64,000 nucleotides of DNA, from NCBI GenBank assembly GCA_002351725.1, contig DEHD01000018.1:10519-74518 (forward strand). The letters run 5' to 3'. Source of the DNA: Prevotella sp. UBA2809 (GTDB lineage: Bacteria > Bacteroidota > Bacteroidia > Bacteroidales > Bacteroidaceae). The notes under the pieces are model-generated. The model saw only the letters and a program-made list of their open reading frames with translations. It had not been told where the DNA came from and searched no databases. This document shows positions 34,928-51,253 of this stretch, in pieces. The number at the start of each line of letters is the position of its first letter. Within the stretch, counting starts at the first letter, position 1. Both the position numbers and the translations under genes were made by a program.

Positions 34928-35923
34928 TTATGTGCCCAAATAAGTTCGGATATCGTCTTGGATGCGGCGGAATTGCTCTGAAGAGATGTAACCAGTATTC
35001 TTTTTGAGCATAACCTTTATATCCTGCAGCGAGTTTTCGTAACAGGACATTTCGTTTCGCTTCTGTGTCTTATGTGCAGTGGCATAGAAAATCTCGTTCT
35101 GGCGTTCCTGTCGCAACAAATTGCACACCTTAGTAAGTATGGGCGATACAACGGTATCGAACAGATGATGGCCTTGCATATATAAATAGGTAGTCTGTGG
35201 AGTAACACCAAGTGCACGGATATCATCCTTAGTGGCAAGGTATTCGTCCTTTGCGTCTGGGAACTGGCGCTGCAATTCATTAATCTTAGTATGCACCTTA
35301 CGCTTTACATTAGAAATAGAGGCGCTAGGATTCATCACATTGAATCCACCAGGATCAGCAATGCGATTGAAATCGCTAATGGAGAACTTTGGGTAGTTAC
35401 CATTGCGATACACCATGACAGACCACACAAAGAGCGGAAATAAAGCCTCGCTAAACTGCGCAAAATATTCACGGAAATCAAAGATTCTATGATCATTGAG
35501 GGTAACAGACACACAGACATTATGCAGCGAAGGGGCATAGCATTGGAAGTTCTCGATAGCATACACATAGGTATGGAACACATAAGAACTATTTAACACA
35601 CTTCGAGACTGATGTGTTCGGCCCTGAATAAGATAGTCGTAATCAGCATCTACACAAGCTATCATGTCCTTACCTAGAGGTTCACCCTCGAGGAAATTCA
35701 TAAGCACCGACTTCTTTCCACGAGTGAGGTTAACTTTTGATGGAAGCATCACCTCAAAGTAACGCTTATCGTTCTCGAATTCGCTGAGCACAGTGCGCCA
35801 AAAGTAAATATCATCATAGCTTTCGACATAGGCCACAATCCTATGTCGCGCCTTCTTTGAGGTAAGCGCATTGGCAGCCTCAAAATAACGGCTATTGATA
35901 TTATCCTTTAGACGATTGGCCAT
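34928..35923 (-). CDS. DUF4435 / TOPRIM-like protein (AriB-like)
   Basis: YVESYDD (TOPRIM Glu), CVDADYD (DxD), YAIEN; directly downstream of an ABC-type ATPase gene. Confidence 0.8.
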   Translation of the reverse strand: MANRLKDNINSRYFEAANALTSKKARHRIVAYVESYDDIYFWRTVLSEFENDKRYFEVMLPSKVNLTRGKKSVLMNFLEGEPLGKDMIACVDADYDYLIQGRTHQSRSVLNSSYVFHTYVYAIENFQCYAPSLHNVCVSVTLNDHRIFDFREYFAQFSEALFPLFVWSVMVYRNGNYPKFSISDFNRIADPGGFNVMNPSASISNVKRKVHTKINELQRQFPDAKDEYLATKDDIRALGVTPQTTYLYMQGHHLFDTVVSPILTKVCNLLRQERQNEIFYATAHKTQKRNEMSCYENSLQDIKVMLKKNTGYISSEQFRRIQDDIRTYLGT

Positions 35924-35935
35924 AAACCGCAGGCC

Positions 35936-36772
35936 TTAAACAGTAATATCTGATACCTCTGTTACGGAATCTACCCAACCATTCATAACGATGGCAGGAG
36001 AATGTGTGGTGAGAATAATCTGTACGTTGGGGTTGAGCTCAAGACAGAGGTCAACAAGACGTTTCTGCCACTCAAGATGTAATGACACCTCAGGTTCGTC
36101 CATAAACAGGACATAAGGCATATTATCCTCCACCAGAACAGTAAGCAGGATTATCAGAATCTGCTTTTCTCCACTCGACAACTGATAGGGCAACAAAACC
36201 TCACCTATCTGTGTAAAACGGAGCTCGTTCTCAGTGCGGATCATCTTCTTACCCGTATCGCGGAACAGTTCATCAACGATATCCTGGAAACGGGTTTTCT
36301 TCTGAGACAGCTGCTGAGCGGCATCAGCATCGCCACTCTGAAGCTTATCGATAATACGATTGCCTATGTTTACCTGGTAATCAAGATACTTACGCTGCAG
36401 ATTATATAATTGGATATCGAGTAGCGAACCACCCCCTACTCCAGCTAAGGCAGAAAGGGCCTGACGAAGGAATCCTTCGCCTTCGGCAAGTGCCTGCTGC
36501 AGATTTGAGTCTAGCGAGCGGATCATATCATAGCGAATCCACTTGGCATCCTCTGGTTCTACATCCAAGCGTACACCCTTAAGCATATGCGAAGGGAACT
36601 CGCCACCAGCAATAAGCCCCTTAACAACTTTGTTAAGGATGGTACTCTTACCTTCGCCATTCATTCCGCTTAGGATATTAACATGGCGATTCAATTCCCA
36701 CACGATATGTTTCTTTCCGCTCCAAAGCGAATCGATCTCTATCTTCTTAATGTAATCAGCGTACTTAGGCAT
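35936..36772 (-). CDS. soluble ABC-type (AAA_15/AAA_21-like) ATPase (AriA-like)
   Basis: Walker A GMNGEGKST, LSSGEKQ, Walker B FMDEPE, SLH, TTHS; no TM segments. Confidence 0.85.
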   Translation of the reverse strand: MPKYADYIKKIEIDSLWSGKKHIVWELNRHVNILSGMNGEGKSTILNKVVKGLIAGGEFPSHMLKGVRLDVEPEDAKWIRYDMIRSLDSNLQQALAEGEGFLRQALSALAGVGGGSLLDIQLYNLQRKYLDYQVNIGNRIIDKLQSGDADAAQQLSQKKTRFQDIVDELFRDTGKKMIRTENELRFTQIGEVLLPYQLSSGEKQILIILLTVLVEDNMPYVLFMDEPEVSLHLEWQKRLVDLCLELNPNVQIILTTHSPAIVMNGWVDSVTEVSDITV

Positions 36773-36805
36773 AGGCAAGGTTTTTAGAAAGTTCGTATTT
36801 TATTG

Positions 36806-39032: not shown

Positions 39033-39047
39033 AACAAAAAATCATAG

Positions 39048-39073
39048 AAAATCCCCGCCTTGAGGCGAGGATT
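39048..39073 (-). terminator. probable intrinsic terminator after the downstream TonB receptor
   Basis: Minus strand AATCCTCGCCT-ca-AGGCGGGGATT-TT hairpin, 8 nt after the stop. Confidence 0.6.
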
Positions 39074-39081
39074 AACTTGAT

Positions 39082-42000
39082 TTAGTTGAACAGATAGCGT
39101 ATTGTGAACATAATCTGATAAGTAGACTGCAGTCCGAGGAAGTCGGAGAAAGTTGACAGATGACGTTCGCCATTCACTGTGTTATAGGTGTACTTGCCCT
39201 TGTTATACGACAGGAGCGAGGTCTCTGTTACCTGCTTGTATAATCCCCACTTCTTGTTAAGGAAATTAGGTAGATTCAGAATGTCTACGCCGAACTGCAG
39301 TGTGTGCTTGGTCTTACCAAAATTCATAGTCATATCTTGTTCAAACTTAAAGTCTAATTGATGATGCCAAGGCATCTTTGCGCCACCACGCTCAGCATAC
39401 TTACCTGTACGAGTCTTAAGATAATCATCCTGCTGGATATAAGCCCAGAAGTCATCACGCTGCATATCGGCGGTATATACCTGATGGTTTGAACCATAAG
39501 TACTCTCAGCAAAATCCCAGCTGTCAAGTTCATTTCTTGATGCTGGCACATATATCAGGTTGGCTGGCGCCAAGGCATCGCTGTTGACATTCGACGAGAA
39601 GATATAGCTGAAACGGCTGAAAGCATACTCGGTTAGGAAACCATACTGATAGCCATCGTAAACAAGCGAGAAGTGGGAACTGGCGTTCTTCGACTCCTTA
39701 AGCGTATAGCTGGCAGATATCAACAGGCGGTTAGGAGCAACGTAAGTGGCATAACCCAACTCGTTATCGTTGACGGCATTCACTGAGTTACGATAGTTGT
39801 TGTAGGCAGAGGCTACCTGGTTTCCGATACCATCGGTATAGGTCTTGGCCTTTGACAGCGTGTAGCTGGCTGAGAGGTCGAGCCCAAAGTCGAACTTCTT
39901 GCGCAGCTGGGCGCTCAACGACATGTAGTAGGCCTTGCCACCAGCATTCTCGAGCACATAGGCCGAGGAATTGGCATCGTAGTACGACATCTTGTGGCGA
40001 ATGTCTCCATGCCCAAGATCGATGGTAGAATGGCCATCCCAATAGATGTCGCGATTAGAAACCACTACAGGATTAAGATCCTTGTTCATGATACCCTCGA
40101 TGGTAAAGTCGATATCACCAGGCAGTTTCGCATCGAGAGCAAGCGAAGCCTTCCAGGTCTTTGGCATACGCAGATCGTCGCTCAGGATAGTAGCGCTGCT
40201 AGGGATAGTGGTCGAACTCTTTGCACCAATCTGCTGGAGCATATCAGCCTGACTAGTGGTAAAGGTAGGAATAGTACCCTTGGTTTGCGATGCGATATAA
40301 GATGTCTGTCCCATACCAGAGTTGCCCACTGCTGATATCAACCATACAAATGGCAGACGACCAACGAAGAGACCTGTACCTCCACGAAGGATAAGATTCT
40401 GATTGCCAGTAATGTCCCAGTTGAATCCCAGACGAGGCGAGAATGATATGCTGGCATCGGGCACATTATCCGTGCGGAAGTGCTGCCAGCCAAAGTCTAT
40501 GTTGTAGTAATCCTCGTTGAAATTATCCTTAAGACTAGGATACGAAGGCAACTCGAAGCGCACACCAAGCGACATGCGGAAACGATCGCTCAGACTCATA
40601 TTATCCTGGAAATAGAGCGACCACTGGTTAGTGCTCATCTTTGCCACAAACCGAGAGTGTTCAGCGTTATTGCCATATGTAATACCAAACAAACGTGTAT
40701 TCTCCTTGGTGAATACGCTAGCCCAATCGCCCGCAGCCACTTGTTCTGGTGTAGCCTGGAATGCATAATATCCTGCACCAGCTTGAGCATAACCATTGGC
40801 CGCCCAGTCGTTTTCAAATTGGATTCCACCAAACAGGTTGTGCTTACCTAACTGTATATTAATCTCATCGGTAATCACCGTAGTCTTTGTTTTTGCCTCG
40901 TTGCCGTATGTAAACATATCGCCTGTCAACGCCCAGTAAGGATAATGGCCCTGCTCATCGCTCATAACGATTTCTACCACAGGCACATCAACACCATATT
41001 CGTTGCTACGAGGCTGGTCCTGATATGAATAGGTACCACGAAGGGTATTATGCAACTTTCCAAACTTACTATTTAACTCAGCAGCAACCGAGGTAAAACG
41101 GAATTCTGTCATATAACGGCTCGAGAGTGCCGACATACCATAATCAGTATTACCACCATACGAGTTCTGGTTTCCACCATATATAATTGATGTACGGTTG
41201 CTACCTATGCTACGCGAAGCCGAAGCGGGATTAGCTTCCTTACGATTAGACTTAGTGAAACGGACATTAAACTTATGATCATCGTTTATGTTCCAATCCA
41301 AACGAGCCAGGATGCGATATGCAGGCGTTTTAAGATTATAATTCTGCCAAGGACCGGTGGTTATGCCGTAATTAGTCTGCAGATAGTTAGACAGACTCTC
41401 TAATTCAGAAAGCCTTGGTCGACGGTTAGTTGCGGTGTATGGCGTAGAACCATTACCTGCCTGCACGGCAGGGCCTGCAGTTACATTATCCTCATACTCA
41501 CCATTCACAAAGAAAAAGAGTTTATCCTTCAAAATAGGACCTCCAAAGCTCAAACCAAAGGTACTATTATGACCTTTTGGCAATAACAGCTCGGTAGAGT
41601 GGATTTTCTTACCCTTCAGGTCAGAACTTGTCAGGAAAGTATATACCATACCCTTGAAGGTGTTAGTACCACTCTTGGTTACAGCATTAATGCCACCACC
41701 CGTAAAACCACTCTGGCGCACATCGTATGGCGTTACAGAGACTGTCATCTGATCGAGAGCCTCGAGTGAGATTGGTGTACCGCCACCAGGCAGCGGACTT
41801 GGTTCCATACCAAACGAGTCGTTGAACGAGGCACCATCGATAGTAACAAACGACTGGCGATAGTTACCTCCACCAATAGCCATACCGCTGGCAGAGCTCG
41901 ACTGTGGAGTCATCTTCATCAAGTCGGTCATCGAGCGTCCGATGGTAGGTACAGCAGCCATCTGATTGGCATTAAGATTGGTTACAGCACCACTGCGGTC

Positions 42001-42384
42001 GCTACGCATCGTATTGTTAGCCTTAGCAGTAACCACAATCTCCTGAATCATCTCAGAGCCCTCGCTGAGCGATGCATCTACAACAGCATTCTGACCCAGA
42101 GACAGCTGGACATCGGAAAACTTGGCCGTCTGAAAGCCTATGTACGACACTTCAACCTCGTAAGGACCACCTGCCTTCATACCCGTAATGGTATAATGGC
42201 CATCGATGTTGGTTACAGCACGATATACTGAACCTGAAGGCACATGCTTGGCTGTAACAGTTGCGCCGATAGCCTCTTCGCCACCAGCCATAACGGCACC
42301 TGTGATTCCTGAGGTTGTGACCTGAGCAAAAACGGAAAGCGAAACTGTTAATATAGCTACCGTTATTAGTAGTATTCTTTTCAT
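39082..42384 (-). CDS. TonB-dependent receptor, Oar-like, with N-terminal carboxypeptidase-regulatory-like domain (paralog 2)
   Basis: Signal peptide; PYDVRQSGFTGGGINAVTKSGTN, FSPRLGFNW, GGTGLFVGR; ends RYLFN. Confidence 0.88.
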   Translation of the reverse strand: MKRILLITVAILTVSLSVFAQVTTSGITGAVMAGGEEAIGATVTAKHVPSGSVYRAVTNIDGHYTITGMKAGGPYEVEVSYIGFQTAKFSDVQLSLGQNAVVDASLSEGSEMIQEIVVTAKANNTMRSDRSGAVTNLNANQMAAVPTIGRSMTDLMKMTPQSSSASGMAIGGGNYRQSFVTIDGASFNDSFGMEPSPLPGGGTPISLEALDQMTVSVTPYDVRQSGFTGGGINAVTKSGTNTFKGMVYTFLTSSDLKGKKIHSTELLLPKGHNSTFGLSFGGPILKDKLFFFVNGEYEDNVTAGPAVQAGNGSTPYTATNRRPRLSELESLSNYLQTNYGITTGPWQNYNLKTPAYRILARLDWNINDDHKFNVRFTKSNRKEANPASASRSIGSNRTSIIYGGNQNSYGGNTDYGMSALSSRYMTEFRFTSVAAELNSKFGKLHNTLRGTYSYQDQPRSNEYGVDVPVVEIVMSDEQGHYPYWALTGDMFTYGNEAKTKTTVITDEINIQLGKHNLFGGIQFENDWAANGYAQAGAGYYAFQATPEQVAAGDWASVFTKENTRLFGITYGNNAEHSRFVAKMSTNQWSLYFQDNMSLSDRFRMSLGVRFELPSYPSLKDNFNEDYYNIDFGWQHFRTDNVPDASISFSPRLGFNWDITGNQNLILRGGTGLFVGRLPFVWLISAVGNSGMGQTSYIASQTKGTIPTFTTSQADMLQQIGAKSSTTIPSSATILSDDLRMPKTWKASLALDAKLPGDIDFTIEGIMNKDLNPVVVSNRDIYWDGHSTIDLGHGDIRHKMSYYDANSSAYVLENAGGKAYYMSLSAQLRKKFDFGLDLSASYTLSKAKTYTDGIGNQVASAYNNYRNSVNAVNDNELGYATYVAPNRLLISASYTLKESKNASSHFSLVYDGYQYGFLTEYAFSRFSYIFSSNVNSDALAPANLIYVPASRNELDSWDFAESTYGSNHQVYTADMQRDDFWAYIQQDDYLKTRTGKYAERGGAKMPWHHQLDFKFEQDMTMNFGKTKHTLQFGVDILNLPNFLNKKWGLYKQVTETSLLSYNKGKYTYNTVNGERHLSTFSDFLGLQSTYQIMFTIRYLFN

Positions 42385-42388
42385 TGTC

Positions 42389-42420
42389 AACCGGTTTTAT
42401 TAGACTTTGGGGCAAAGGTA
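42389..42420 (-). promoter_or_regulatory. promoter of receptor paralog 2: -7 box plus AACCGG motif
   Basis: TACCTTTG at 42420-42413; 25/32 identical to 48841-48872. Confidence 0.65.
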
Positions 42421-42487
42421 CAAAATAAAATGATAGAATGCAAGTTTTTATTAAGAAAATTCACATTTCTGAACTGCGTTTCAAATC

Positions 42488-42553
42488 GGGTATAGGCGAA
42501 TGATCGTTTGCGTAAAGGCAAACAATCGTTTGGGTATAGGCAAACGATAATTA
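42488..42553. repeat. 22-bp palindromic tandem repeat, three units
   Basis: gggtataggcgaatgatcgttt / gcgtaaaggcaaacaatcgttt / gggtataggcaaacgataatta. Confidence 0.8.
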
Positions 42554-42722
42554 TATAGGCGTAATGTACCTTTTATCCTTAAGGTTTGTACTTGCAACCC
42601 TTAACCTTTACCCTTTCAAACCATAGTAGAAGAAAAATGGTCACACAACAATCAATATCTAATATAACTACTTGATATTCTGATATTTATATTTGCCACT
42701 ACACTTTTTTGCTAGCCTCGTT

Positions 42723-42754
42723 GGTCACATGGTCACAGCTGTGACCGTGTGACC
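42723..42754. repeat. 32-bp near-perfect palindrome built from GGTCACA units
   Basis: ggtcacatggtcacag|ctgtgaccgtgtgacc, one mismatch; another TGGTCACA at 42638-42645. Confidence 0.8.
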
Positions 42755-42761
42755 GTTGGCT

Positions 42762-43832
42762 TTATTTCACAATCATCTTCTTATTCTTGCGGATGTAGAT
42801 ACCCTTCTTGAGATTCTTTCCATCTACACGCTGACCGCGGAGATTGTAGATAGCGCCATCGTCTTCGATGAAGATAGTCTTGGTGATCTCTTCAATACCA
42901 GAAGTTGCAGGCACATAGTTGTTATAACTGAAAGCATCATCCATCTTGTTACCCCAGATATACTGTTCCAGACCTGGATAATCAACAAAAGGATTGCGAT
43001 TGCCCTGAATGCCATAGATAGCCTCATTACGATTTAACTCCTTCTCGCTTACAGGATCATTAGCTGCCCAACGGAGCAACATCTTAAGAGCCCAATCCTT
43101 AAAGAATGGATAAACGGTTCCATTTAACATCGACTTATTACCTCTTTCCCACTTTTTGGGAGTACGAGTTTCACCTTTCTCGTTTTTATACGACTCGTAA
43201 CGGGTGGCCATATAGAAATAAACACGAGCCAAATCACCCTTATATTCGTCGTTGGGTTCAAAAACATTTCCATTGTCACCAGAAACTGTAGAATAACCCA
43301 GACTATCTACGGAAACGCCAAACTTCGAGAAGCCGCCTGCAGACTGCTTGGTAACAGTAGCTCCAACTTCACCGTAAGGATTGTCGCCACGCATCTCATT
43401 TACAGCGCGATCGGTTGGAAAAAGATGATGGAGGTCGGTATACATGGGATATACGCTGGTACTATGGTCATCTGGTTCCTTAGTCTCATTAAACCAACTC
43501 TTAGGCATAGCGTGTTCACGATTATACTTTACGCCCTCATCAACTATATTACCTTTATCCTGATCGGTTACAGGTGTGAAGTTAGAAATACCAGAATAGA
43601 TATCCCATATCTTACCATCCTCGCGAATGTCGTAAGAGTTAACGGCATTCCAAACACCTGGGGTATAGCTCTGAACTTTATGGTTGTTAGAGATTATGGC
43701 AAACAATGCCGATTTAAGTTCCTCTGCCTTCTTGCCATCAGCATCCTGATAATAGGTACCAGTATTGTTGGGTCCCTGAGCCCAGACAGAGAATGATGCA
43801 AAAAGAGAAATAAAAAGTAGATATCTCTTCAT
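42762..43832 (-). CDS. secreted endonuclease I (Bsn/EndA-like) with Prevotella-type T9SS-like C-terminal tail
   Basis: Signal peptide ...VWAQ; NREHAMPKSWF, DLHHLFP, KGDLAR, QGNRNPFVDYP; tail IYNLRGQRV...KGIYI...KMIVK. Confidence 0.88.
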   Translation of the reverse strand: MKRYLLFISLFASFSVWAQGPNNTGTYYQDADGKKAEELKSALFAIISNNHKVQSYTPGVWNAVNSYDIREDGKIWDIYSGISNFTPVTDQDKGNIVDEGVKYNREHAMPKSWFNETKEPDDHSTSVYPMYTDLHHLFPTDRAVNEMRGDNPYGEVGATVTKQSAGGFSKFGVSVDSLGYSTVSGDNGNVFEPNDEYKGDLARVYFYMATRYESYKNEKGETRTPKKWERGNKSMLNGTVYPFFKDWALKMLLRWAANDPVSEKELNRNEAIYGIQGNRNPFVDYPGLEQYIWGNKMDDAFSYNNYVPATSGIEEITKTIFIEDDGAIYNLRGQRVDGKNLKKGIYIRKNKKMIVK

Positions 43833-43850
43833 TTTTATACTTGCATTAGG

Positions 43851-43888
43851 AAAAAATGCTCCCAATGCCTGTATTGGCATCGGGAGCA
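43851..43888 (-). terminator. intrinsic terminator between the OB-fold lipoprotein and nuclease genes
   Basis: Minus strand TGCTCCCGATGCC-aataca-GGCATTGGGAGCA-TTTTTT. Confidence 0.8.
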
Positions 43889-43908
43889 GATATTGTTAAG
43901 AACTATAA

Positions 43909-45495
43909 TTAATTTGCATGCTTGAACGAGAAGCAAACACCACTGCTAAGCTGAGGAACACCCTTATAGCTTGTCTTGTAAGCAATAATAGTGATCTCAT
44001 CGCCTACCTTGATGTCGTTATCCTGAATAAGATACTTGCGGTCGTCGCCCTTAGCACCCCAACCAGGATAGCATCCGTATACATAGATCTCGCTGGTTCC
44101 GTCGCTGAAGAAGAGGTTACCATAGTCGTTATCGTTACCCTTATCATCTTTCAGTGAGGTGATAGTACCAGTTACCATGTAATAGGTATTCTTATCGTCC
44201 CCCTTAGCAAGAAGCTCGGTAATAGTAGCAGTCTGGACTGCATACTTGATAGCCTCGAATTTACCAGAAACCATCTGTGGTGTACTCTTGTAAGCACCAC
44301 GCTGGCCTACTACGGTAACAACATCACCTACCTTTGCGCCAGAATCCTTGAAACCAGCTGCACGATAAACGAGCACCTTACCAGAGTAGTCCTGAATATA
44401 GAAGCTCTCACCCTGCTTGTCGCTAGTATAAAGCTCGGTTACAACACCAGTAATGCGATAGTTGGTAGTACCAACCTCAGCAGCCAGGAAGTCGGCAACG
44501 TTGGTCTCAATGATAGCACCCTTCTGAGTGATAGTTGCCTGAGAGGTGTACTCCTTAGAACCATCGGTAGTCTTGAAGGTTACAGTAACCTCGCGATCGC
44601 CACCCTCGTTGTTCTTAGCATAGAAGGTAACAGTTGGGTTAGCACCTACAGTTGAAGAGGTAACACCCAGCCACTCCTTAGCCTCGGCAGGAATCTCAAC
44701 AGCAACGCCAGTACCCTTACAGGTGAGGTGAGCAGTGATCTCGCCACCAGCAACAGGAAGCTCGCTTGATACAACACCATCAACAGTCAGAGAGTCAACC
44801 TTGATAAGAGACTTAACAATCTTAACTACAGTTACGTTAACCAGCTCTACAGTACCATTATAGGTAGTCTTTGGACCCTGAACAGTAACCTGGTCGCCAA
44901 CCTCGATACCCAGACTTGAGAAGTTCTTCTCGGCACCCTTTGCATCGAGCGTACCATAGATGTAAACCTCGCCTGTACCATCGTTGATATACCAGTTACC
45001 ATAAGTGGTATTGGCAATAGATGTAACCACACCAGTTACCTGATAGGTCTTAGAGTCAGGACCAGCCAGAACCTCTGCGCAAGAAGCGTTCTCGATAGTT
45101 ACCAATCCCTGAATAACGCGGATGCGCTGCTCCTCACCATTTGATGTGATAATGAGTTCGCATGAACGGCCTTCGCCAGCCTCAGCACTGAACACGAGCT
45201 TGGTCTCGCCTGCAGCACCTGATTCCTGATTAACCTTAAGCCATGTTGGAGTGGCATAATGCTTAACCACTTCCTTATCACCTTCCTTCTCTTTTACCGA
45301 GAAAATCTTCTCGAACTCCCAATTACCATTGGCTGTGAGTTCAATCTCTGTTGATCCGCCAGCAGTGTTAAGAGAAACGTATGACTGCGAAACTCTGATG
45401 CCCTCGAGATATGAAGGATCATTATCTTTTGCACAGCTAGTGAATAATGCAGCTACAACTGCTACAAGAGACGGAATGAAATATTTAAGTTTCAT
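43909..45495 (-). CDS. surface lipoprotein with two BACON-like and three OB-fold-like domains
   Basis: Lipobox FTSC followed by AKDND; three repeats of Y.(V/I)TG.(V/I)T...D.(T/S)...(I/V)Y...VGD.(V/I)T...Y. Confidence 0.75.
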   Translation of the reverse strand: MKLKYFIPSLVAVVAALFTSCAKDNDPSYLEGIRVSQSYVSLNTAGGSTEIELTANGNWEFEKIFSVKEKEGDKEVVKHYATPTWLKVNQESGAAGETKLVFSAEAGEGRSCELIITSNGEEQRIRVIQGLVTIENASCAEVLAGPDSKTYQVTGVVTSIANTTYGNWYINDGTGEVYIYGTLDAKGAEKNFSSLGIEVGDQVTVQGPKTTYNGTVELVNVTVVKIVKSLIKVDSLTVDGVVSSELPVAGGEITAHLTCKGTGVAVEIPAEAKEWLGVTSSTVGANPTVTFYAKNNEGGDREVTVTFKTTDGSKEYTSQATITQKGAIIETNVADFLAAEVGTTNYRITGVVTELYTSDKQGESFYIQDYSGKVLVYRAAGFKDSGAKVGDVVTVVGQRGAYKSTPQMVSGKFEAIKYAVQTATITELLAKGDDKNTYYMVTGTITSLKDDKGNDNDYGNLFFSDGTSEIYVYGCYPGWGAKGDDRKYLIQDNDIKVGDEITIIAYKTSYKGVPQLSSGVCFSFKHAN

Positions 45496-45516
45496 ATTTG
45501 TCTTACCTTTAATTAA

Positions 45517-48500
45517 TTAGTTGAAATAATACTTAACACCGATAGAAGCATACCAGCACTGACCAAGACTATAGTTAGTAGTCCAAGTCTGAGTGTTGCC
45601 ATTGATAGACTTTGGAGTAGAGAAGGTAGCGAAGCCCTGTGCGTCGACACCCTCGTACTTCAGGATCTTAGCCTCTGAACCAATCTCAGGATTCAGATAC
45701 TTAGCTACACCCCATGAAGAATCGAAGAAGTTGAGAACGTTCTTCATATCGAATGTGAGCTGCAGCATGTGCTTGGTCTTACCGATGTTCAGCTTGAAGT
45801 CGTGCTTGTAGCCGAAGTCAAGGCGGTGTACCCATGGAGAGTAAACGCTGTAAGCCTCAGCATACTCACCCTGATGCTTGCTCAGATAACCATCGTTGTG
45901 AACATAGTCCATGAAGCGGGTCTTATCGTCCTCACTTACAAAGCGGAACATGTTGTTAGCAACCTCCTCATCTGTTGGAATGTAAAGTGCATCGTAAGCG
46001 TAACCATCGCCGTTCATATCGTTCTGCATCATGTAAGAGTAGCTGTTGCCACCACGCCATGCTTCGTATACAAAGTTATAGTGGTTGCCACACTTATCGT
46101 GGAGAGTAGCGCTTGCTACGATACGATCAGGAGTTACATACTGAGAGTTGTGCAACTTGATGTTGTTTGGTCCCTCGTAAGTAGGTACGTATGTGAATGC
46201 AGACTCAGCAGCTGAACCAGGCATACCAGTAACCTCCTTAGATACAGTGTGAGTATAAGCAGCCATCAGGCTTACCCAGTCGGCAGGCTGAGCGTTCAGA
46301 GTAATGTTAGCGCTCCAACCGTAACCACGACTTGTGTTCTCAAGAACAAATGCCTTAGTACCGCTGCGGAAATCATCTGGGAAGATAGGACGGTTGTCAA
46401 CACCATTGAAGCGAGCGAAACCACCTACGTTCTTAATACTCCAGTCAGAGATTGATACACCATTAAGAGTCTTATTGTAGATTCCCTCAACAGTAACTGT
46501 GAATGGGAACTCAACAGGAATCTGATAGTCGATAGCCAAAGAGGTCTTCCAAACCTGAGGCATCTTGAAGCTAGGATCAACACCGTTAACAGCAGAAGGA
46601 ACTGTTCCGTCCTCAGGCTTAACAGTTGTAGGATAGCCGAGGCTCTGGAGCTTAGCAAGCATATCGCTGACATTTGTCATAGGACCACCAGCGAACTCTT
46701 CCATACCAAAGCCCATCTTGCTGGCATTCTTAGCATTGATCTGTGCCTGATACTGAACCAGACCACCATTGGTAGGCATGTTGGTGAAGAATACCAGAGG
46801 CAGACGACCAGAGAAGAGACCAGTACCACCACGAACCTTCAGGCTCTTGTCACCAAATACGTCGTAGGTGAATCCCAGACGTGGAGAGAAGGTGATGCTG
46901 TTCTTTGGCCACTTACCTGTATCAACGTGACGACCGTTATAATCGAGATTCAGAATAGCTGCGTTAGTCATCAGGTCGCTGTTGTTGAAGAACAATCCAT
47001 CAACACGCAGACCGTAGGTGAGCTTGAACTTATCGTTGATGTTCCACTCATCCTGAGCATAGATACCAGGACGGTTGAACTGAACACGAGCAGCAGGAGC
47101 TGTCTCACCATCGTAACCGTAAGTCAGACAGAAAATCTCAGGAGTCTGGTTGAACAACATATCTGGCTGCAGTACACCACCAATATACATATTGTCGGAG
47201 AGGTTGTAACGATAGTAACCAGAACCGTTACGCATATACATATTGTCGGCCATCTGATGCTCGAAACTGATACCAGCCATAATCTTATGGGCACCAGCAT
47301 AATAGGTTACATCGTCCTTGATGTTCCAAATAGTGTTGTGAACTGCGTTGTTCCATGTGAACAGCTCATAACCCAGAGCGATGTAGTTGTTATCGTCCTT
47401 AGTGATATCAATGAATGGGAACTCAGAAGAGTTTGTACCACGGATATCATCGAGTTTAGAGATAGTAGCCAGCAACTGGTTAGAAAGATTATCAGTAAGA
47501 CGGCTATTGAAGTCGAGTGACCAAGAATGTACGGTATTCTTCATTGAGTACATTGAGTTGGCATATGCCATAGAATACTGAGACATACGGGCACCACTCA
47601 TACGAGTACCACCATCCATAGAGGTAGCATTTGGAGCGTTCCATACATTATTCTTAGTATAGTTATAGCGCAGAGCCACTTTGTGACGATCGTTGATGTT
47701 CCAGTCTAAGCGGGCCATCAGCTTGTAGTTACTCTCATCAGCTGGGAAGCTTGTCCAAGAACCGGTATCGTAACCGTACTTGTTGGCCATATAATTAGAA
47801 ATAGCCTCAAGATCCTTGTTGGTTGTACGAGAGATATAGTTTTCAGCATCAGCCTTACCATCCTCAGAACCCTTCCAACGGTTAACAACTGATGGAATCT
47901 TAATCATTTCTCCGTTGACGAAGAAGAAGAGTTTGTTCTTGATGATTGGGCCACCCAGAGTGAAACCGTAAGTAGTAGTCTGAGACTTCTCACGAGCACC
48001 CTGAATCTGCTGGCGATTTACAGCGTCACCCTGCATATTCTCATTCTTGTGATAAACGTAAGCACTACCCTTGAAGGTGTTAGTACCCGACTTAGTAATA
48101 GCGTTTACACCACCACCGATGAAGTTGGTCTGACGAACATCGTAAGGAGAGATAACAACCTGCAACTCTTCGATAGCATCGATAGAGATTGGGTTACCAC
48201 CACCAGGAAGGTTTGCACTCAAACCAAAGTTGTTGTTGAAGTTAGCTCCATCAACGGTGAAGTTGGCAGTACGACCATCAGCACCAGCGAAGCTCATGCC
48301 ATTACCTCCATAAGGAGACAGACGAGTAACATCTGTGATTGAACGGCTAACGGTTGGCAGGTTGGTAATCTGCGAGCTGTTAATGTTAGTAGCAGCACCT
48401 GTCTTCTCAGCAGCGAACTTTGAAGCCTTACCACTTACTACAACCTCTGCAAGCTCAGTAGCGTCCTCTGACAAGAATACTGAGAGATTGTAGGTTTCAG

Positions 48501-48801
48501 CCAGCTGGAGGATAATCCCCTTAACGGTTTTGGGCTGGAAACCGATGTAAGAAATGGTCACATTGTAAGGACCACCAGTACGCATACCATTAATCGAGAA
48601 ACGACCTGTGGTATTGGTCACTGCTGTGTAACGAGTACCAGAAGGCTCGTGAACAGCCACAACTGTAGCACCGATGACTTCCTCGCCATTAGCATCGTCG
48701 AGGGTCACCTTTCCAGCCATACTTGAAGTTGTGATTTGCGCCATCAATGTTAGCGAAAACGTTAACATCATAGCAACCAGAAAGAGTAATCTTTTCTGCA
48801 T
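45517..48801 (-). CDS. TonB-dependent receptor, Oar-like (paralog 1)
   Basis: Signal peptide; PYDVRQTNFIGGGVNAITKSGTN, FSPRLGFTY, GGTGLFSGR; ends KYYFN. Confidence 0.88.
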   Translation of the reverse strand: MQKRLLFLVAMMLTFSLTLMAQITTSSMAGKVTLDDANGEEVIGATVVAVHEPSGTRYTAVTNTTGRFSINGMRTGGPYNVTISYIGFQPKTVKGIILQLAETYNLSVFLSEDATELAEVVVSGKASKFAAEKTGAATNINSSQITNLPTVSRSITDVTRLSPYGGNGMSFAGADGRTANFTVDGANFNNNFGLSANLPGGGNPISIDAIEELQVVISPYDVRQTNFIGGGVNAITKSGTNTFKGSAYVYHKNENMQGDAVNRQQIQGAREKSQTTTYGFTLGGPIIKNKLFFFVNGEMIKIPSVVNRWKGSEDGKADAENYISRTTNKDLEAISNYMANKYGYDTGSWTSFPADESNYKLMARLDWNINDRHKVALRYNYTKNNVWNAPNATSMDGGTRMSGARMSQYSMAYANSMYSMKNTVHSWSLDFNSRLTDNLSNQLLATISKLDDIRGTNSSEFPFIDITKDDNNYIALGYELFTWNNAVHNTIWNIKDDVTYYAGAHKIMAGISFEHQMADNMYMRNGSGYYRYNLSDNMYIGGVLQPDMLFNQTPEIFCLTYGYDGETAPAARVQFNRPGIYAQDEWNINDKFKLTYGLRVDGLFFNNSDLMTNAAILNLDYNGRHVDTGKWPKNSITFSPRLGFTYDVFGDKSLKVRGGTGLFSGRLPLVFFTNMPTNGGLVQYQAQINAKNASKMGFGMEEFAGGPMTNVSDMLAKLQSLGYPTTVKPEDGTVPSAVNGVDPSFKMPQVWKTSLAIDYQIPVEFPFTVTVEGIYNKTLNGVSISDWSIKNVGGFARFNGVDNRPIFPDDFRSGTKAFVLENTSRGYGWSANITLNAQPADWVSLMAAYTHTVSKEVTGMPGSAAESAFTYVPTYEGPNNIKLHNSQYVTPDRIVASATLHDKCGNHYNFVYEAWRGGNSYSYMMQNDMNGDGYAYDALYIPTDEEVANNMFRFVSEDDKTRFMDYVHNDGYLSKHQGEYAEAYSVYSPWVHRLDFGYKHDFKLNIGKTKHMLQLTFDMKNVLNFFDSSWGVAKYLNPEIGSEAKILKYEGVDAQGFATFSTPKSINGNTQTWTTNYSLGQCWYASIGVKYYFN

Positions 48802-48840
48802 AAATTTTTAACTGTTTTAATTAATTAATTATCGGAATAA

Positions 48841-48905
48841 AACCGGATTATTTAAATTTCGGTGCAAAGGTATGAAAATTTTTCCGATTTAATGTTATAA
48901 ATCGG
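48841..48905 (-). promoter_or_regulatory. promoter of receptor paralog 1: AACCGG motif, -7 box and upstream inverted repeat
   Basis: TACCTTTG at 48872-48865; CCGATTTA-N6-TAAATCGG at 48884-48905. Confidence 0.6.
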
Positions 48906-48943: not shown

Positions 48944-50113
48944 TTAGGCCTCGTCCTCGAAGTCCTCGTACTCAAAGTCCTCGATATCCTCGATATCATC
49001 CTCGTCGATATACTCGATATCCTCGTCCTCACCCTCATCGGCAAGCTCCTGAGCAAAACGGCTCATATCCTTGTCGCGATGCACCAGCGAATCCTCCGAG
49101 GTGATGACGTTCAGTTTGTTGCTTTCGGCATTCAGCTCGTTCCAAAGCACATCCTTGAGTTCGTCGAGACCATAGCCGGTCACAGCCGAAATAAATACCA
49201 CAGGCAAATCCTGAGGCAACGACTCCTTCAGCATCTCAATCAGTTCCTCGTCGAGCAGGTCGCACTTGGTAACGGCCAGCACGCGATGCTTGTCGAGCAT
49301 CTCGGGATTGAACTGCTGAAGCTCGTTGAGCAGAATTTCATATTCTCGCTTAATATCATCAGTATCGCCAGGTACCATAAAGAGCAACAGCGAGTTTCGC
49401 TCAATATGGCGCAAAAACCTGAGTCCCAAACCTTTACCTTCGGATGCGCCCTCGATAATTCCTGGGATATCGGCCATAACAAACGACTTGTTATCGCGAT
49501 ATCCAACAATACCAAGAGAGGGTTCCATAGTGGTAAATGGATAATTTGCTATTTTAGGCTTAGCATTTGATAGCGATGAGACAAGGGTAGATTTTCCCGC
49601 ATTAGGAAAACCTACCAAGCCTACATCAGCTAATAATTTCAATTCAAGAATAATGGTCATCTCCTGCATGGGCTCACCAGGCTGGGCATAACGCGGAGCC
49701 TGATTGGTAGATGTACGGAACTGGAAATTACCCAATCCTCCACGACCACCCTTCAGTAGCAGAACTTCCTGACCATCGTATGTAACATCGCAGACATACT
49801 TTCCGGTTTCAGCATTATACACTACGGTACCACAAGGCACATCAATGTAAACATCCTTTCCATCGGTACCATGACACTTGTCACGACCACCATTACCTCC
49901 GTGTTCTGCAAAGATATGGCGCTCGTACTTGAGGTGCAAAAGAGTCCAATAGTTATGGTTTCCGCGCAGAATGATGCTTCCCCCCTTTCCACCATCACCA
50001 CCATCAGGACCTCCGTTGGGGTTATACTTTACATGGCGTAAGTGCATACTGCCCTTACCTCCCTTACCAGAGCGGCAGTAAATCTTAACGTAGTCTACGA
50101 AATTTGATTCCAT
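48944..50113 (-). CDS. obgE: GTPase ObgE
   Basis: [30 protein letters not shown]; acidic tail. Confidence 0.96.
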
Positions 50114-50686
50114 TTAGATATTGTCAATAACTTGGCAAATGTCTCCGAAAATACGCTCCAGCTCGCCCAGACCGTCGATATGATAGTGAACACCCTCCTT
50201 CTTATACCATTCAATGAGAGGCATTGTCTGAGAGTGATAAACCACGAGGCGCTTCTTGATTGTCTCCTCGTTGTCGTCAGCACGTCCGCTCTGCTGTCCA
50301 CGCAGGATAAGACGCTTCATCAGCTCATCCTCTGGAACATCAAGCTCAATCATAGCTGCAACCTTGTCACCACGCTCATCGAGCATCTTCTTCAAGGCCT
50401 CAGCCTGTGGGATAGTACGGGGGAATCCGTCGAAGATAACACCTTTGCTATCGCGTCCGAAGCTATCATATACAGAAGCAAGGATGCTAACCATAAGATC
50501 ATCTGGAATAAGCTGACCCTTCTCAATATAGCTGGCTGCAGTCTTACCCAGTTCTGTACCATTTTTGATTTCATCACGAAGTACGTCACCAGTTGAGATG
50601 TGGTTAAGTCCGTACTTCTCAATCATCTTATCACTCTGTGTTCCCTTGCCTGAGCCAGGAGCACCAAAAATAACGATATTCTTCAT
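50114..50686 (-). CDS. adk: adenylate kinase
   Basis: GAPGSGKGTQ, DGFPRT, RADD. Confidence 0.96.
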   Translation of the reverse strand: MKNIVIFGAPGSGKGTQSDKMIEKYGLNHISTGDVLRDEIKNGTELGKTAASYIEKGQLIPDDLMVSILASVYDSFGRDSKGVIFDGFPRTIPQAEALKKMLDERGDKVAAMIELDVPEDELMKRLILRGQQSGRADDNEETIKKRLVVYHSQTMPLIEWYKKEGVHYHIDGLGELERIFGDICQVIDNI

Positions 50687-50713: not shown

Positions 50714-51253
50714 TTACTCATCAATGATTGTGTAAATATCCTTCAAACCTCTGGCCTGCTGATCGTAATCCAAGCCGTAGCCAAGAATAAAATCATCGGG
50801 AATGCTGAAAGCTACGTATTCTGGATGGATATTCTCCTTCAGCTTGCTGGGTTTAAAGAACAATGTGCAGATATGAATGGATTCAGGGTTACGAGTGCCC
50901 AGCGACTCTATCATCTGCTTCATAGTAAGGCCGCTCTCCACAATATCTTCTACAATTATCACCGTACGATTAGTCAAGTCCTCGTTAATACCAAACACCT
51001 CCTTGATTTTACCTGTGGATGTGGTTCCCTGATAAGAAGCCAACTTCACAAAAGAAATCTCACAAGGAATAGTCATCTCACGTATCAAGTCGGCCGCAAA
51101 GATAAACGCACCATTCAGAACACCTAACAACAGGGGATTCTTACCCTCCATATCCTTACTGATCTGCTGAGCCACAGCCTTTACACGCTCCTTAATTTCT
51201 GCCTCAGTGATGGAGGTTTTGAACGACTTATCCTTAACTTTGATAATACTCAT
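50714..51253 (-). CDS. hpt: hypoxanthine phosphoribosyltransferase
   Basis: VEDIVESGLT, FILGYGLDY. Confidence 0.95.
   Translation of the reverse strand: MSIIKVKDKSFKTSITEAEIKERVKAVAQQISKDMEGKNPLLLGVLNGAFIFAADLIREMTIPCEISFVKLASYQGTTSTGKIKEVFGINEDLTNRTVIIVEDIVESGLTMKQMIESLGTRNPESIHICTLFFKPSKLKENIHPEYVAFSIPDDFILGYGLDYDQQARGLKDIYTIIDE

Follow-up and report, generated by a model that had tools for sequence, protein, structure and literature searches.

The closest described system is ddbABCDEF, a DNA-utilisation locus of Bacteroides thetaiotaomicron (Sharan et al., PNAS 2025, PMC12478041). In that study, ddb receptors were defined by more than 50% identity over more than 75% coverage to the DdbC proteins Bt1, Bt2, Pv1 or Pv2, and DdbD was matched to the HIN-200 structure 4jbm (PMC12478041). 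A second relevant system is the protein pair RA0C_RS04915/RS04920 of Riemerella anatipestifer, which forms the outer-membrane part of the natural transformation machinery (PMC8459023). It combines a CarboxypepD_reg outer-membrane protein with an adjacent surface protein that is thought to bind DNA. In SusC/SusD-type polysaccharide utilisation loci (PULs), capture, extracellular cleavage and TonB-dependent import are likewise co-encoded.

We analysed a window of 64,000 nucleotides from a rumen Prevotella, for which an earlier note had proposed a PUL-like, SusD-less locus for the use of extracellular nucleic acids. ORFs and domain matches confirmed the proposed set of four genes on the minus strand, in the order TBDT-1, BACON/OB lipoprotein, endonuclease I and TBDT-2. 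As claimed, no SusD, glycosidase or regulator was found within the locus. The features are as follows.

48865-48872, minus strand: -7 promoter box TACCTTTG of the Bacteroidota type, belonging to the TBDT-1 operon, read directly in the sequence
about 48831-48848, minus strand: small hairpin in the TBDT-1 leader
about 48814-48830, minus strand: AT-rich AATTAATTAATTAA box following this hairpin
45517-48801, minus strand: TBDT-1, Oar-like TonB-dependent receptor, 1094 aa (PF25183, 2.8e-50; PF13620, 7.8e-17)
43909-45495, minus strand: surface lipoprotein, 528 aa, with lipobox FTSC and Cys21 followed by AKDND
45109-45399, minus strand: BACON1 of the lipoprotein
44815-45093, minus strand: OB1 of the lipoprotein
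44524-44805, minus strand: BACON2 of the lipoprotein
44242-44508, minus strand: OB2 of the lipoprotein
43921-44232, minus strand: OB3 of the lipoprotein
43857-43888, minus strand: terminator-like hairpin between the lipoprotein and nuclease genes, with a 13 bp stem including 8 GC pairs, followed by T6
42762-43832, minus strand: endonuclease I, probably 356 aa from the ATG at 43832, in an ORF open from 43880 (PF04231, E 1.4e-64)
42975-43724, minus strand: catalytic domain of endonuclease I
42765-42899, minus strand: short T9SS-type C-terminal tail of endonuclease I
42722-42755, minus strand: palindromic hairpin terminator 3' of the nuclease gene
42413-42420, minus strand: -7 promoter box TACCTTTG of TBDT-2, kept upstream of the TBDT-2 orthologs in loci L001-L003
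39082-42384 (or 42390), minus strand: TBDT-2, second Oar-like TonB-dependent receptor, 1100 aa from the ATG at 42384 (PF25183, 6e-53)
39047-39070, minus strand: intrinsic terminator 3' of TBDT-2, CCTCGCC-TCAA-GGCGGGG followed by a T run, read directly

TBDT-1 consists of a signal peptide, a CarboxypepD_reg domain (residues 30-110), a divergent plug (about residues 138-231) and a large barrel. Both TBDT-1 and TBDT-2 scored well above the cut-offs of PF13620 and PF25183, which places them in the Oar-like class, and a TonB-box-like EVVVSG was read by eye in the Oar-like receptor. The plug of TBDT-1 matched positions 15-106 of the 107 positions of PF07715 below the cut-off (21.3 bits, cut-off 23.9, E 4e-4). 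The SusC model TIGR04056 reached 56.9 bits with TBDT-1 (cut-off 368), exclusively over 124 N-terminal residues (29-152), and the partner lipoprotein had no match to a SusD family; therefore, a SusC/SusD-type PUL was rejected. What the locus has in common with such PULs, apart from its general logic, is the CarboxypepD_reg domain of the receptor and the BACON spacers of the lipoprotein, whereas it differs in having no SusD, glycoside hydrolase or regulator.

For comparison with DdbC we used two proxies, the Bt-like P0350 and the Pv-like P0275, selected on the basis of locus content and of their mutual identity of 25%. TBDT-1 had no BLAST similarity to P0350, of which no homolog was found in the Prevotella genome, and its likeness to P0275 was confined to the N-terminal domain. 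TBDT-1 was thus rejected as a DdbC-type receptor against both proxies. The Bt type of ddb (compare the Xylanibacter/Prevotella oryzae locus L093) follows the same logic, combining a TonB receptor that lacks a SusD with an adjacent OB-like DNA-binding lipoprotein and with secreted nucleases, but it has a DdbC-like barrel of 849 aa instead of the Oar-type receptor of 1094 aa, and a DUF5689 partner instead of one with the domain order BACON-OB-BACON-OB-OB. The Pv type of Phocaeicola, as seen in Phocaeicola faecalis (L108) and a Bacteroides relative (L111), also combines a SusD-less TonB receptor, a lipoprotein and a nuclease. However, its receptor, with about 900 aa and a standard Plug, shares 25% identity with Bt-like DdbC (E 8e-36), and its partner, a DUF5017 "choice-of-anchor J" lipoprotein, has no homology to the lipoprotein of the window. 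The latter family was absent from the 16 Phocaeicola and 16 Bacteroides genomes sampled.

The two BACON domains of the lipoprotein were recognised by PF13004 in two stretches (55.3 bits, cut-off 25, E 6e-15), and the AF2 model placed beta-sandwiches at residues 33-129 and 231-324. The residues directly following the lipobox cysteine include acidic ones. The three OB-fold-like repeats postulated by the earlier note were recovered in the predicted fold; the whole-protein model had a pLDDT of 87.6 and the OB2-OB3 model a pLDDT of 97. In a Foldseek search with OB2-OB3, all top matches were tandem OB nucleic-acid binders, namely Teb1 (7e-8), RPA70 and HIN-200, at a probability of 1.0. Among them was 4jbm, the structure to which DdbD had been matched. 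Aligned separately (VIA), OB2 and OB3 gave Z values of 11-12 at an rmsd of about 2 A over 85-100 residues, with RPA bound to ssDNA, CST, HIN, and the OB domains of Asn-, Asp- and Lys-tRNA synthetases as partners. Homologs of the lipoprotein matched PF01336 above the cut-off (up to 7.5e-14), and the lipoprotein of the window itself had sub-threshold profile matches only (RMI2, LysRS). Judged from these models, the lipoprotein is an OB-fold protein of the nucleic-acid-binding type; the sharing of a fold does not prove binding.

By hhalign, OB1 and OB3 proved homologous to the accessory protein that canonical ddb-type loci encode at the DdbE position (95.8%, E 7e-9, and 98.6%, E 1e-15), and the OB module weakly resembled the N-terminal part of the ExeM/NucH model. 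Even with E relaxed to 10, PF18942 (DUF5689) did not match the lipoprotein, hhalign against a DUF5689 protein gave a probability of 4%, and DUF5689 was not found anywhere in the genome, which is 88% complete. This ruled out the lipoprotein as a DdbD. The earlier note had mentioned a receptor and nuclease locus for DNA use in gut Bacteroides; such a locus exists in ddbABCDEF, but the relation is one of analogy, as receptor and lipoprotein belong to families other than DdbC and DdbD. Because the receptor has no BLAST likeness to DdbC and the lipoprotein is not a DUF5689 protein, function cannot be transferred by orthology. Both kinds of system can reside in one genome, as 20 of 23 carriers own the window-type and the ddb system. 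Prevotella aff. ruminicola Tc2-24 is among the cultured carriers.

The identity of endonuclease I was borne out by PF04231 (218.5 bits, cut-off 25). The likely translation start is the ATG at 43832 (MKRYLL..., with a Sec signal) rather than 43880. The enzyme carries the conserved motifs of the family of E. coli EndA and Vibrio Vvn intact (REH121, HHL151, and N-EMRG at about 161-165), the catalytic role of which we take from family knowledge; phmmer against solved structures matched none, as the enzyme is too diverged. EndA and Vvn are periplasmic or depend on Sec alone, whereas the enzyme of the window has an additional short tail of the T9SS type. The curated models TIGR04183 and PF18962 did not match this tail of 45 residues, but it resembles at least 17 other C-termini of the same genome (E below 0.01), which have the motif (I/W)Y-L-G---KG(I/V)YI--GKK in common and four of which belong to ORFs matched by TIGR04183. 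The tail is a candidate T9SS sorting domain. The genome also encodes SprA, and endonuclease I with a full Por_Secre_tail was found in related loci. With its predicted Sec signal and its tail, endonuclease I takes the place of the secreted nuclease in ddb loci, although those examined have Exo_endo_phos_3 or Endonuclease_NS lipoproteins.

The comparison covered 80 related loci, which are spread over many families of Bacteroidales. Both genes were callable in 71 loci, and in all 71 the TBDT-1 ortholog (66-99% identical) was located directly upstream of the lipoprotein gene, an adjacency far beyond chance. The neighbourhood analysis proposed by the earlier note revealed a nuclease or phosphodiesterase within 3 kb of this pair in 26 of the 80 loci. 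Five enzyme families occurred there: endonuclease I, an endonuclease I-DUF5689-T9SS fusion, Endonuclease_NS, Exo_endo_phos_3 and NPP. The background for the same enzyme panel in the Prevotella genome was 3 of 2961 ORFs (about 0.1%). TBDT-1 and the lipoprotein are the conserved core of the system, and the nuclease is an exchangeable, optional accessory present in about a third of the loci. Near-identical contigs of all four genes, some of which span gene junctions, were found in metatranscriptome libraries of three studies, a weak hint in favour of the system.

The transcriptional signals divide the locus. TBDT-1 orthologs of the Prevotella clade are likewise preceded by the -7 box, by a hairpin in the same position and by the AT-rich box. 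The hairpin between the lipoprotein and nuclease genes is a possible attenuation point, and no TAnnTTTG box was found from this hairpin to the nuclease start. A TAnnTTTG box and a terminator of its own make TBDT-2 a separate transcription unit. It is 33% identical to TBDT-1 over the full length, has no partner lipoprotein, and its orthologs accompany the locus in only 5 of the 80 relatives (L001-3, L010 and L011). These results lend no direct support to the earlier proposal of two receptors for different oligonucleotides. The nearest relatives of TBDT-2 elsewhere (47-52% identity) were found beside Pv-like ddb modules in two of six contexts examined, as Oar-like receptors directly upstream of the Pv-type loci. 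Membership of TBDT-2 in the system is uncertain, and its links to nucleic acids are no more than suggestive. The reported linkage to hpt-adk was upheld only in part: the genes do lie upstream, but obg sits between adk and TBDT-1, and hpt-adk-obg is linked to the locus in the close Prevotella clade only. In other lineages, PNPase, groES/EL or padR take its place, so that the linkage represents housekeeping synteny.

Gene content, predicted folds, homologies and synteny together suggest, with moderate confidence, that the locus encodes a surface apparatus for using extracellular DNA and/or RNA. Of the earlier proposal, the core idea is thereby retained on the basis of fold, homology and neighbourhood, and the hpt-adk link and the division between two receptors are not. 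Several observations speak against this reading: two thirds of the related loci lack an adjacent nuclease, a terminator-like hairpin separates the nuclease gene from the receptor-lipoprotein pair, the plug of TBDT-1 scores under the Pfam threshold, and the curated T9SS models miss the nuclease tail.

With no adjacent nuclease in 54 of 80 loci, the cargo of the pair might instead be, for example, a glycan, a peptide or some other polymer with phosphodiester bonds, the nuclease neighbours being accidental or having a side role. Proteins that bind glycans or other proteins can likewise contain OB folds and BACON domains; the latter are characteristic of glycan PULs, some OB families bind oligosaccharides and proteins, and GH20, a SusC/D-like pair or peptidases are among some of the neighbours. 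However, no glycosidase is kept next to the pair, five nuclease and phosphodiesterase families recur beside it against the low genomic background, and its OB module is common to ddb accessory proteins and the ExeM/NucH nuclease N-terminal region. A cargo other than nucleic acids is thus unlikely.

A role of the pair in natural transformation is unlikely. In that case it would carry DNA through the outer membrane, with ComEC-dependent import and recombination to follow, as has been suggested for the Riemerella pair. That CarboxypepD_reg-type protein and its OB-like lipoprotein are essential for transformation (PMC8459023), and ComEC is encoded in the Prevotella genome (C11:7209-7997), but ComEC is nearly universal and was found in non-competent control genomes, too. 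TBDT-1 is not of the Riemerella/DdbC type; the Riemerella receptor is of the DdbC lineage, its partner contains DUF5689 and DUF5017, and its demonstrated role is transformation. In addition, competence results in gut Bacteroidales have been inconsistent (PMC12478041). The enzymes adjacent to the pair (endonuclease I, NPP phosphodiesterase) are degradative, so that feeding fits better than keeping DNA intact. With its PF25183 barrel, TBDT-1 is of the Oar type, and Myxococcus Oar has a role in secretion of the protease PopC, but a comparable role in release of the lipoprotein or nuclease is very improbable, as the lipoprotein has its own lipobox, the nuclease has its own Sec signal and T9SS-type tail, and the pair is kept without any nuclease in most loci.

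If the locus serves the use of extracellular nucleic acids, endonuclease I would, as its family and tail suggest, be exported via the type IX secretion system and cut the polymers outside the cell. The lipoprotein would be lipid-anchored on the outer face, and its three OB folds, carried on two BACON spacers, would capture the fragments, as indicated by fold and homology. These would be passed to TBDT-1, its obligate genetic partner, and oligonucleotides would be moved to the periplasm by TonB energy, a step suggested by the invariant gene pairing and by analogy with SusCD, BtuBG and DdbCD. Further breakdown and salvage may depend on unlinked enzymes, for example, an orphan DdbB-like Exo_endo_phos_3 nuclease encoded elsewhere in the genome. 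TBDT-2 would at best be a second importer, loosely attached to the system. As DNA is a poor sole source of carbon, nitrogen or phosphorus for B. thetaiotaomicron (Sharan et al., PMC12478041), the label "nutrient" may be too simple. The locus would represent a variation on an established type of system, one that follows ddb-like logic with a different transporter and a different binding protein; it is not an ortholog.

The genes around the two Oar-like TonB-dependent receptors, TBDT-1 and TBDT-2, are arranged as follows.

50714-51253, minus strand: hpt
50114-50686, minus strand: adk
48944-50113, minus strand: obg
48865-48872: TBDT-1 promoter, Bacteroidota TAnnTTTG box
45517-48801, minus strand: TBDT-1, 1094 aa, CarboxypepD_reg plus Oar-type barrel PF25183
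43909-45495, minus strand: lipoprotein, 528 aa, with lipobox, BACON and OB folds
42762-43880, minus strand: endonuclease I ORF, PF04231
39082-42390, minus strand: TBDT-2, about 1100 aa, CarboxypepD_reg plus PF25183
after TBDT-2 in minus-strand reading: class II aminoacyl-tRNA synthetase gene, then FKBP gene

As the earlier note said, SusD, a glycosidase and a regulator are all absent from the locus. The lipoprotein gene begins 21 nt past the TBDT-1 stop codon, and a 13-bp GC-rich hairpin followed by T6 separates the lipoprotein and nuclease genes. Because the hairpin and T6 occupy positions 43857-43888, the most likely start codon of the nuclease gene is the ATG at 43832, which would yield MKRYLLFISLFASFSVWA|Q. 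A palindromic terminator lies 3' of the nuclease gene. TBDT-2 has its own promoter box, TACCTTTG, and its own terminator, and was therefore counted as a separate unit. The locus is thus predicted to comprise a two- or three-gene operon, possibly with an attenuation point, and the separate receptor gene TBDT-2.

In the Prevotella clade, the TBDT-1 leader (48814-48872, and the equivalent site in the related loci L001-L079) contains a small GC-rich hairpin about 17-32 nt past the -7 box, in which pairing is kept while the sequence varies between species; a conserved TTAATTAATTAA or T-rich box comes after it. The mean folding z-score was -1.3, with 16 of 25 leaders below -1, but in the window itself this hairpin is weak. 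A role as a leader attenuator or stabiliser is possible. RNAalifold yielded no consensus structure for the TBDT-1 leaders, and Rfam revealed no RNA family within the locus, the single match, isrJ (E 0.09), falling on the TBDT-2 terminator. An AACCGG block common to both promoters was discarded, its conservation being limited to the window and its closest relative, L001. Tandem repeats (period about 22 nt) with the palindromic core AAACGAT/ATCGTTT occupy 42488-42553, in the interval from the nuclease terminator to the promoter of TBDT-2. An ABC-ATPase/DUF4435 gene pair is found at 34928-36778, downstream of the tRNA-synthetase and FKBP genes, and its position is kept in L001 (96% and 93% protein identity).

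The lipoprotein has a lipobox (FTS-C21) followed by AKDND, which is acidic, but not the exact C(x/xx)(D/E)(D/E) export signal. Pfam assigned two BACON domains to it, and OB hints were sub-threshold only (RMI2, the LysRS OB domain, the ExeM/NucH N-terminus). Its family comprises 2378 representative clusters at E below 1e-3, and members score above the PF01336 (OB-fold nucleic-acid-binding domain) cut-off, at up to 7.5e-14. Fused nuclease domains in long family members (900-1250 aa) were considered and rejected, the only match being a weak one to the OB-like region at the N-terminus of the ExeM/NucH model. An AlphaFold2 model from a 37-sequence alignment (pLDDT 87.6) comprised BACON (33-129), OB (135-227), BACON (231-324), OB (330-418) and OB (422-525) domains; the three OB domains are termed OB1 to OB3. 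Foldseek with the whole five-domain model returned mostly Ig-repeat noise, and OB2-OB3 were then folded alone (pLDDT 97). All Foldseek matches of OB2-OB3 were tandem OB nucleic-acid binders, namely Teb1 AB, RPA70 DBD-A/B, and the HIN-200 domains of p202, p204, AIM2 and IFI16; they included 4jbm, the structure that Sharan et al. matched to DdbD, a lipoprotein of the ddb DNA-utilisation locus (PMC12478041). Aligned singly with VIA-align, the OB domains matched RPA with ssDNA, CST, HIN, and the OB domains of Asn-, Asp- and Lys-tRNA synthetases at Z 11-12 and an rmsd of about 2 A. The OB motifs are RPA-like and aromatic. The model, Foldseek and VIA-align results thus establish that the description "three OB-fold-like repeats with BACON-like spacers", made from the bare sequence, was correct.

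The assignment of the nuclease to the endonuclease I family was likewise confirmed (PF04231 at 1.4e-64), with the family motifs REH (121), HHL (151) and N-EMRG (about 161-165) in place. Searches of PDB sequences with phmmer yielded no match for the nuclease, the lipoprotein or TBDT-1. The last 45 residues of the nuclease (…AIYNLRGQRVDGKNLKKGIYIRKNKKMIVK) matched neither TIGR04183 nor PF18962; a tail of this type ends at least 17 other proteins of the same genome, four of which are ORFs matched by TIGR04183. The genome also encodes SprA, the T9SS translocon, and in other lineages the gene adjoining the pair of TBDT-1 and lipoprotein genes encodes a fusion of endonuclease I with DUF5689 and a complete Por_Secre_tail. 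The T9SS is thus the likely export route of the nuclease.

Eighty related loci were compared, from rumen Prevotella, Muribaculaceae, Prolixibacteraceae, Draconibacterium, Maribellus, Proteiniphilum, Petrimonas, Carboxylicivirga, Paludibacteraceae and Salinivirgaceae. The TBDT-1 ortholog was directly upstream of the lipoprotein gene in all 71 loci in which both genes were callable. TBDT-1 orthologs were 66-99% identical (about 70% across families), and the lipoproteins 50-78%. Between the window and L001, protein identity was 98.7% for TBDT-1, 92.5% for TBDT-2, 78% for the lipoprotein and 75% for the nuclease, with the flanking housekeeping genes mostly at 96-99% and hpt and the FKBP gene at about 90%; the fastest-evolving genes of the region are the lipoprotein and nuclease genes adjoining TBDT-1. 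At the DNA level, TBDT-1 (45517-48801) is 97.3% identical to its RUG126 homolog (L001:6695-9976), and the genes around it are mostly 82-88% identical, with adk at 94% and the tRNA-synthetase gene at 96%. Either the receptor gene was exchanged recently or it is under unusually strong constraint.

A nuclease or phosphodiesterase was encoded within 3 kb of the pair in 26 of the 80 loci, mostly no more than 300 bp away and on the strand of the pair; the loci are mutually related, so that this count overstates independence, but the five enzyme families are separate associations. They were endonuclease I (12 loci), the endonuclease I-DUF5689-T9SS fusion (7), NPP phosphodiesterase (4), Endonuclease_NS (2) and Exo_endo_phos_3 (1), against a background of 3 in 2961 ORFs for the same panel in the window's own genome. 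In two Muribaculaceae loci (L027, L066), an NPP phosphodiesterase gene, a SusC/SusD-like pair and a second NPP gene come after the receptor-lipoprotein pair, which suggests a larger organophosphate or nucleotide scavenging cluster. The earlier note had also pointed to the purine-salvage genes hpt-adk just upstream. Among the related loci, hpt-adk-obg lies upstream only in the close Prevotella clade, with PNPase, groES/EL, padR/pspC and other genes in that place elsewhere, and the linkage is therefore not functional evidence.

The receptor and nuclease locus for DNA use in gut Bacteroides that the earlier note mentions does exist, as ddbABCDEF. Its products include three nucleases, DdbC (a TonB receptor), DdbD (a DUF5689 lipoprotein) and the accessory lipoprotein DdbE, and it occurs in Bt and Pv types (Sharan et al., PNAS 2025, PMC12478041). 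Orthology did not hold, as receptor and lipoprotein belong to other families. Our comparisons used proxies instead of the reference proteins of that paper, namely a Bt-like locus from the window's genus (Xylanibacter/Prevotella oryzae, L093) and a Pv-like locus reconstructed from Phocaeicola faecalis. The former has the order Exo_endo_phos_3 nuclease, 849-aa barrel, DUF5689, 539-aa protein and Endonuclease_NS; the latter consists of a 909-aa Plug-domain receptor, a DUF5017 'choice-of-anchor J' lipoprotein and a nuclease. The two proxy receptors were 25% identical (E 8e-36), the value that Sharan et al. give for Bt versus Pv (PMC12478041). TBDT-1 showed no BLAST similarity to the L093 barrel and resembled the Pv-like receptor in the N-terminal domain only, and the window lipoprotein had no DUF5689 match and no profile similarity to the DUF5689 or DUF5017 protein. 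By these sequence comparisons, TBDT-1 and its lipoprotein are neither Bt-like nor Pv-like. Identity of Pv-type ddb with the window family was supported neither by the Phocaeicola faecalis proxy nor by the Phocaeicola genomes (0 of 16).

The two systems share one module: proteins at the DdbE position have an OB domain homologous to OB1 and OB3 (hhalign 95.8%, E 7e-9, 35% identity; for a second protein, 98.6%, E 1e-15). DUF6359 is present in the second protein as well. Two genes flanking a canonical ddb-type locus (L102:9536-11938 and L102:3527-4525) both encode DUF6359 (PF19886), one together with the OB module, and DUF6359 may be a further nucleic-acid-binding module of ddb-type systems. Neither DUF5689 nor a DdbC homolog was found in the window's own genome (88% complete). 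Outside the window, at C10:69435-70478, this genome has an orphan gene for a secreted Exo_endo_phos_3 nuclease, which shares 58% identity with the DdbB-like nuclease from the ddb locus in X. oryzae. Mutual exclusion of the window locus and ddb was rejected, as both were present in 20 of the 23 carriers sampled within the family; carriers lacking DUF5689 were the window's genome, its relative Prevotella aff. ruminicola Tc2-24 and two others only. Tc2-24 is 99% complete, and the other 15 sampled congeners have DUF5689. Replacement at the same site was also rejected, the congeners' DUF5689 loci being devoid of any window flanking genes. Because they mostly co-occur, at different chromosomal sites, the two systems are not alleles of one locus.

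TBDT-1 and TBDT-2 are 33% identical over their full length and are the only receptors of this class in the genome; the remaining matches were SusC-like, with the N-terminal domain alone in common. The Plug model matched TBDT-1 weakly (21.3 bits, under the cut-off), yet spanned nearly the whole profile. TBDT-2 orthologs were co-located with the locus only in L001-3, L010 and L011 of the 80 loci, and the nearest relatives outside the rumen clade were 47-52% identical. In Phocaeicola faecalis (L108) and a Bacteroides relative (L111), an Oar-like receptor about 50% identical to TBDT-2 lies between an ettA-like ABC-F gene and, directly downstream, a Pv-like ddb module whose genes encode a receptor of about 900 aa, a DUF5017 lipoprotein and a nuclease. 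In three other contexts (L109, L110, L112), the neighbours were an uncharacterised lipoprotein, nothing, or GH88, and no nuclease was found nearby; a sixth region fetched, L113, contained a TBDT-1-like receptor (54%) with no adjoining lipoprotein. That receptors of the TBDT-2 type adjoin two unrelated kinds of DNA-utilisation module hints at a nucleic-acid role, but falls well short of showing one. No evidence was obtained that the two receptors are specialised for different oligonucleotides, TBDT-2 being a separate unit of which few relatives carry an ortholog at the locus.

The distribution of the locus is widespread but patchy. It was present in 24 of 301 family genomes (about 8%) and 5 of 35 genera, including 6 of 17 genomes of the window's genus with its own counted, and in 8 of 400 genomes across the order (about 2%); none of the 16 Phocaeicola and 16 Bacteroides genomes sampled had it. 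Among the carriers are rumen Prevotella, Muribaculaceae, Prolixibacteraceae and Dysgonomonadaceae. The stretch is present in gut metagenomes of cattle, sheep and goats. All four genes are represented at 97-100% identity among contigs of metatranscriptome libraries from three studies, and some of these contigs span the TBDT-1/lipoprotein and lipoprotein/nuclease junctions; because such contigs cannot prove transcription or operon structure, they are a weak hint of either, and their depths cannot rank the genes, as DNA carry-over is possible.

Taken together, the locus is probably a nucleic-acid feeding or scavenging system. The secreted endonuclease I would fragment DNA or RNA, the OB lipoprotein would capture the fragments at the surface, and TBDT-1 would import them; unlinked enzymes would complete the breakdown, the orphan DdbB-like nuclease (C10:69435-70478) being a candidate. 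A substrate other than nucleic acid seems unlikely. DNA uptake for transformation is a rather improbable purpose. ddb is related to genes essential for Riemerella transformation (PMC8459023); ComEC is encoded in the window's genome, but is uninformative. An outward, Oar-like role of the receptor is very improbable.

A more far-reaching version of the scavenging interpretation is tentative as a whole. The Oar-type receptor and its BACON/triple-OB lipoprotein would form an independent third lineage of outer-membrane nucleic-acid importers in Bacteroidota, assembled convergently by recruiting the OB module also used by ddb accessory proteins. The receptor is conserved, the lipoprotein and nuclease diverge fast, and the OB motifs are RPA-like and aromatic; together this would fit a substrate that is small and conserved, for instance single-stranded oligonucleotides or pieces of RNA, and not double-stranded DNA. 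In the lineage of the window, where DdbC and DdbD are absent, the pair may be the only nucleic-acid importer, and TBDT-2-type receptors may be a further nucleotide-related importer travelling with both kinds of locus.

Our literature search found no published description of this receptor-lipoprotein family. The principle was already published in 2025 with ddb. The earliest experimental work on nucleic-acid uptake in Bacteroidota dates from 2021-2025, and the locus points to a second machine for this process, built on a different transporter. If this is true, the ddb concept reaches beyond DdbC and DdbD, and a large family of hypothetical 'BACON domain-containing' lipoproteins would be explained. 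A tractable organism for tests is the cultured carrier Prevotella aff. ruminicola Tc2-24, in which the locus, endonuclease I included, is present and DUF5689 absent. Rumen and gut are rich in extracellular DNA and RNA, and such a system would be relevant to the production of nucleobases, the recycling of phosphorus and nitrogen, and what becomes of free DNA, resistance genes included, in gut ecosystems.
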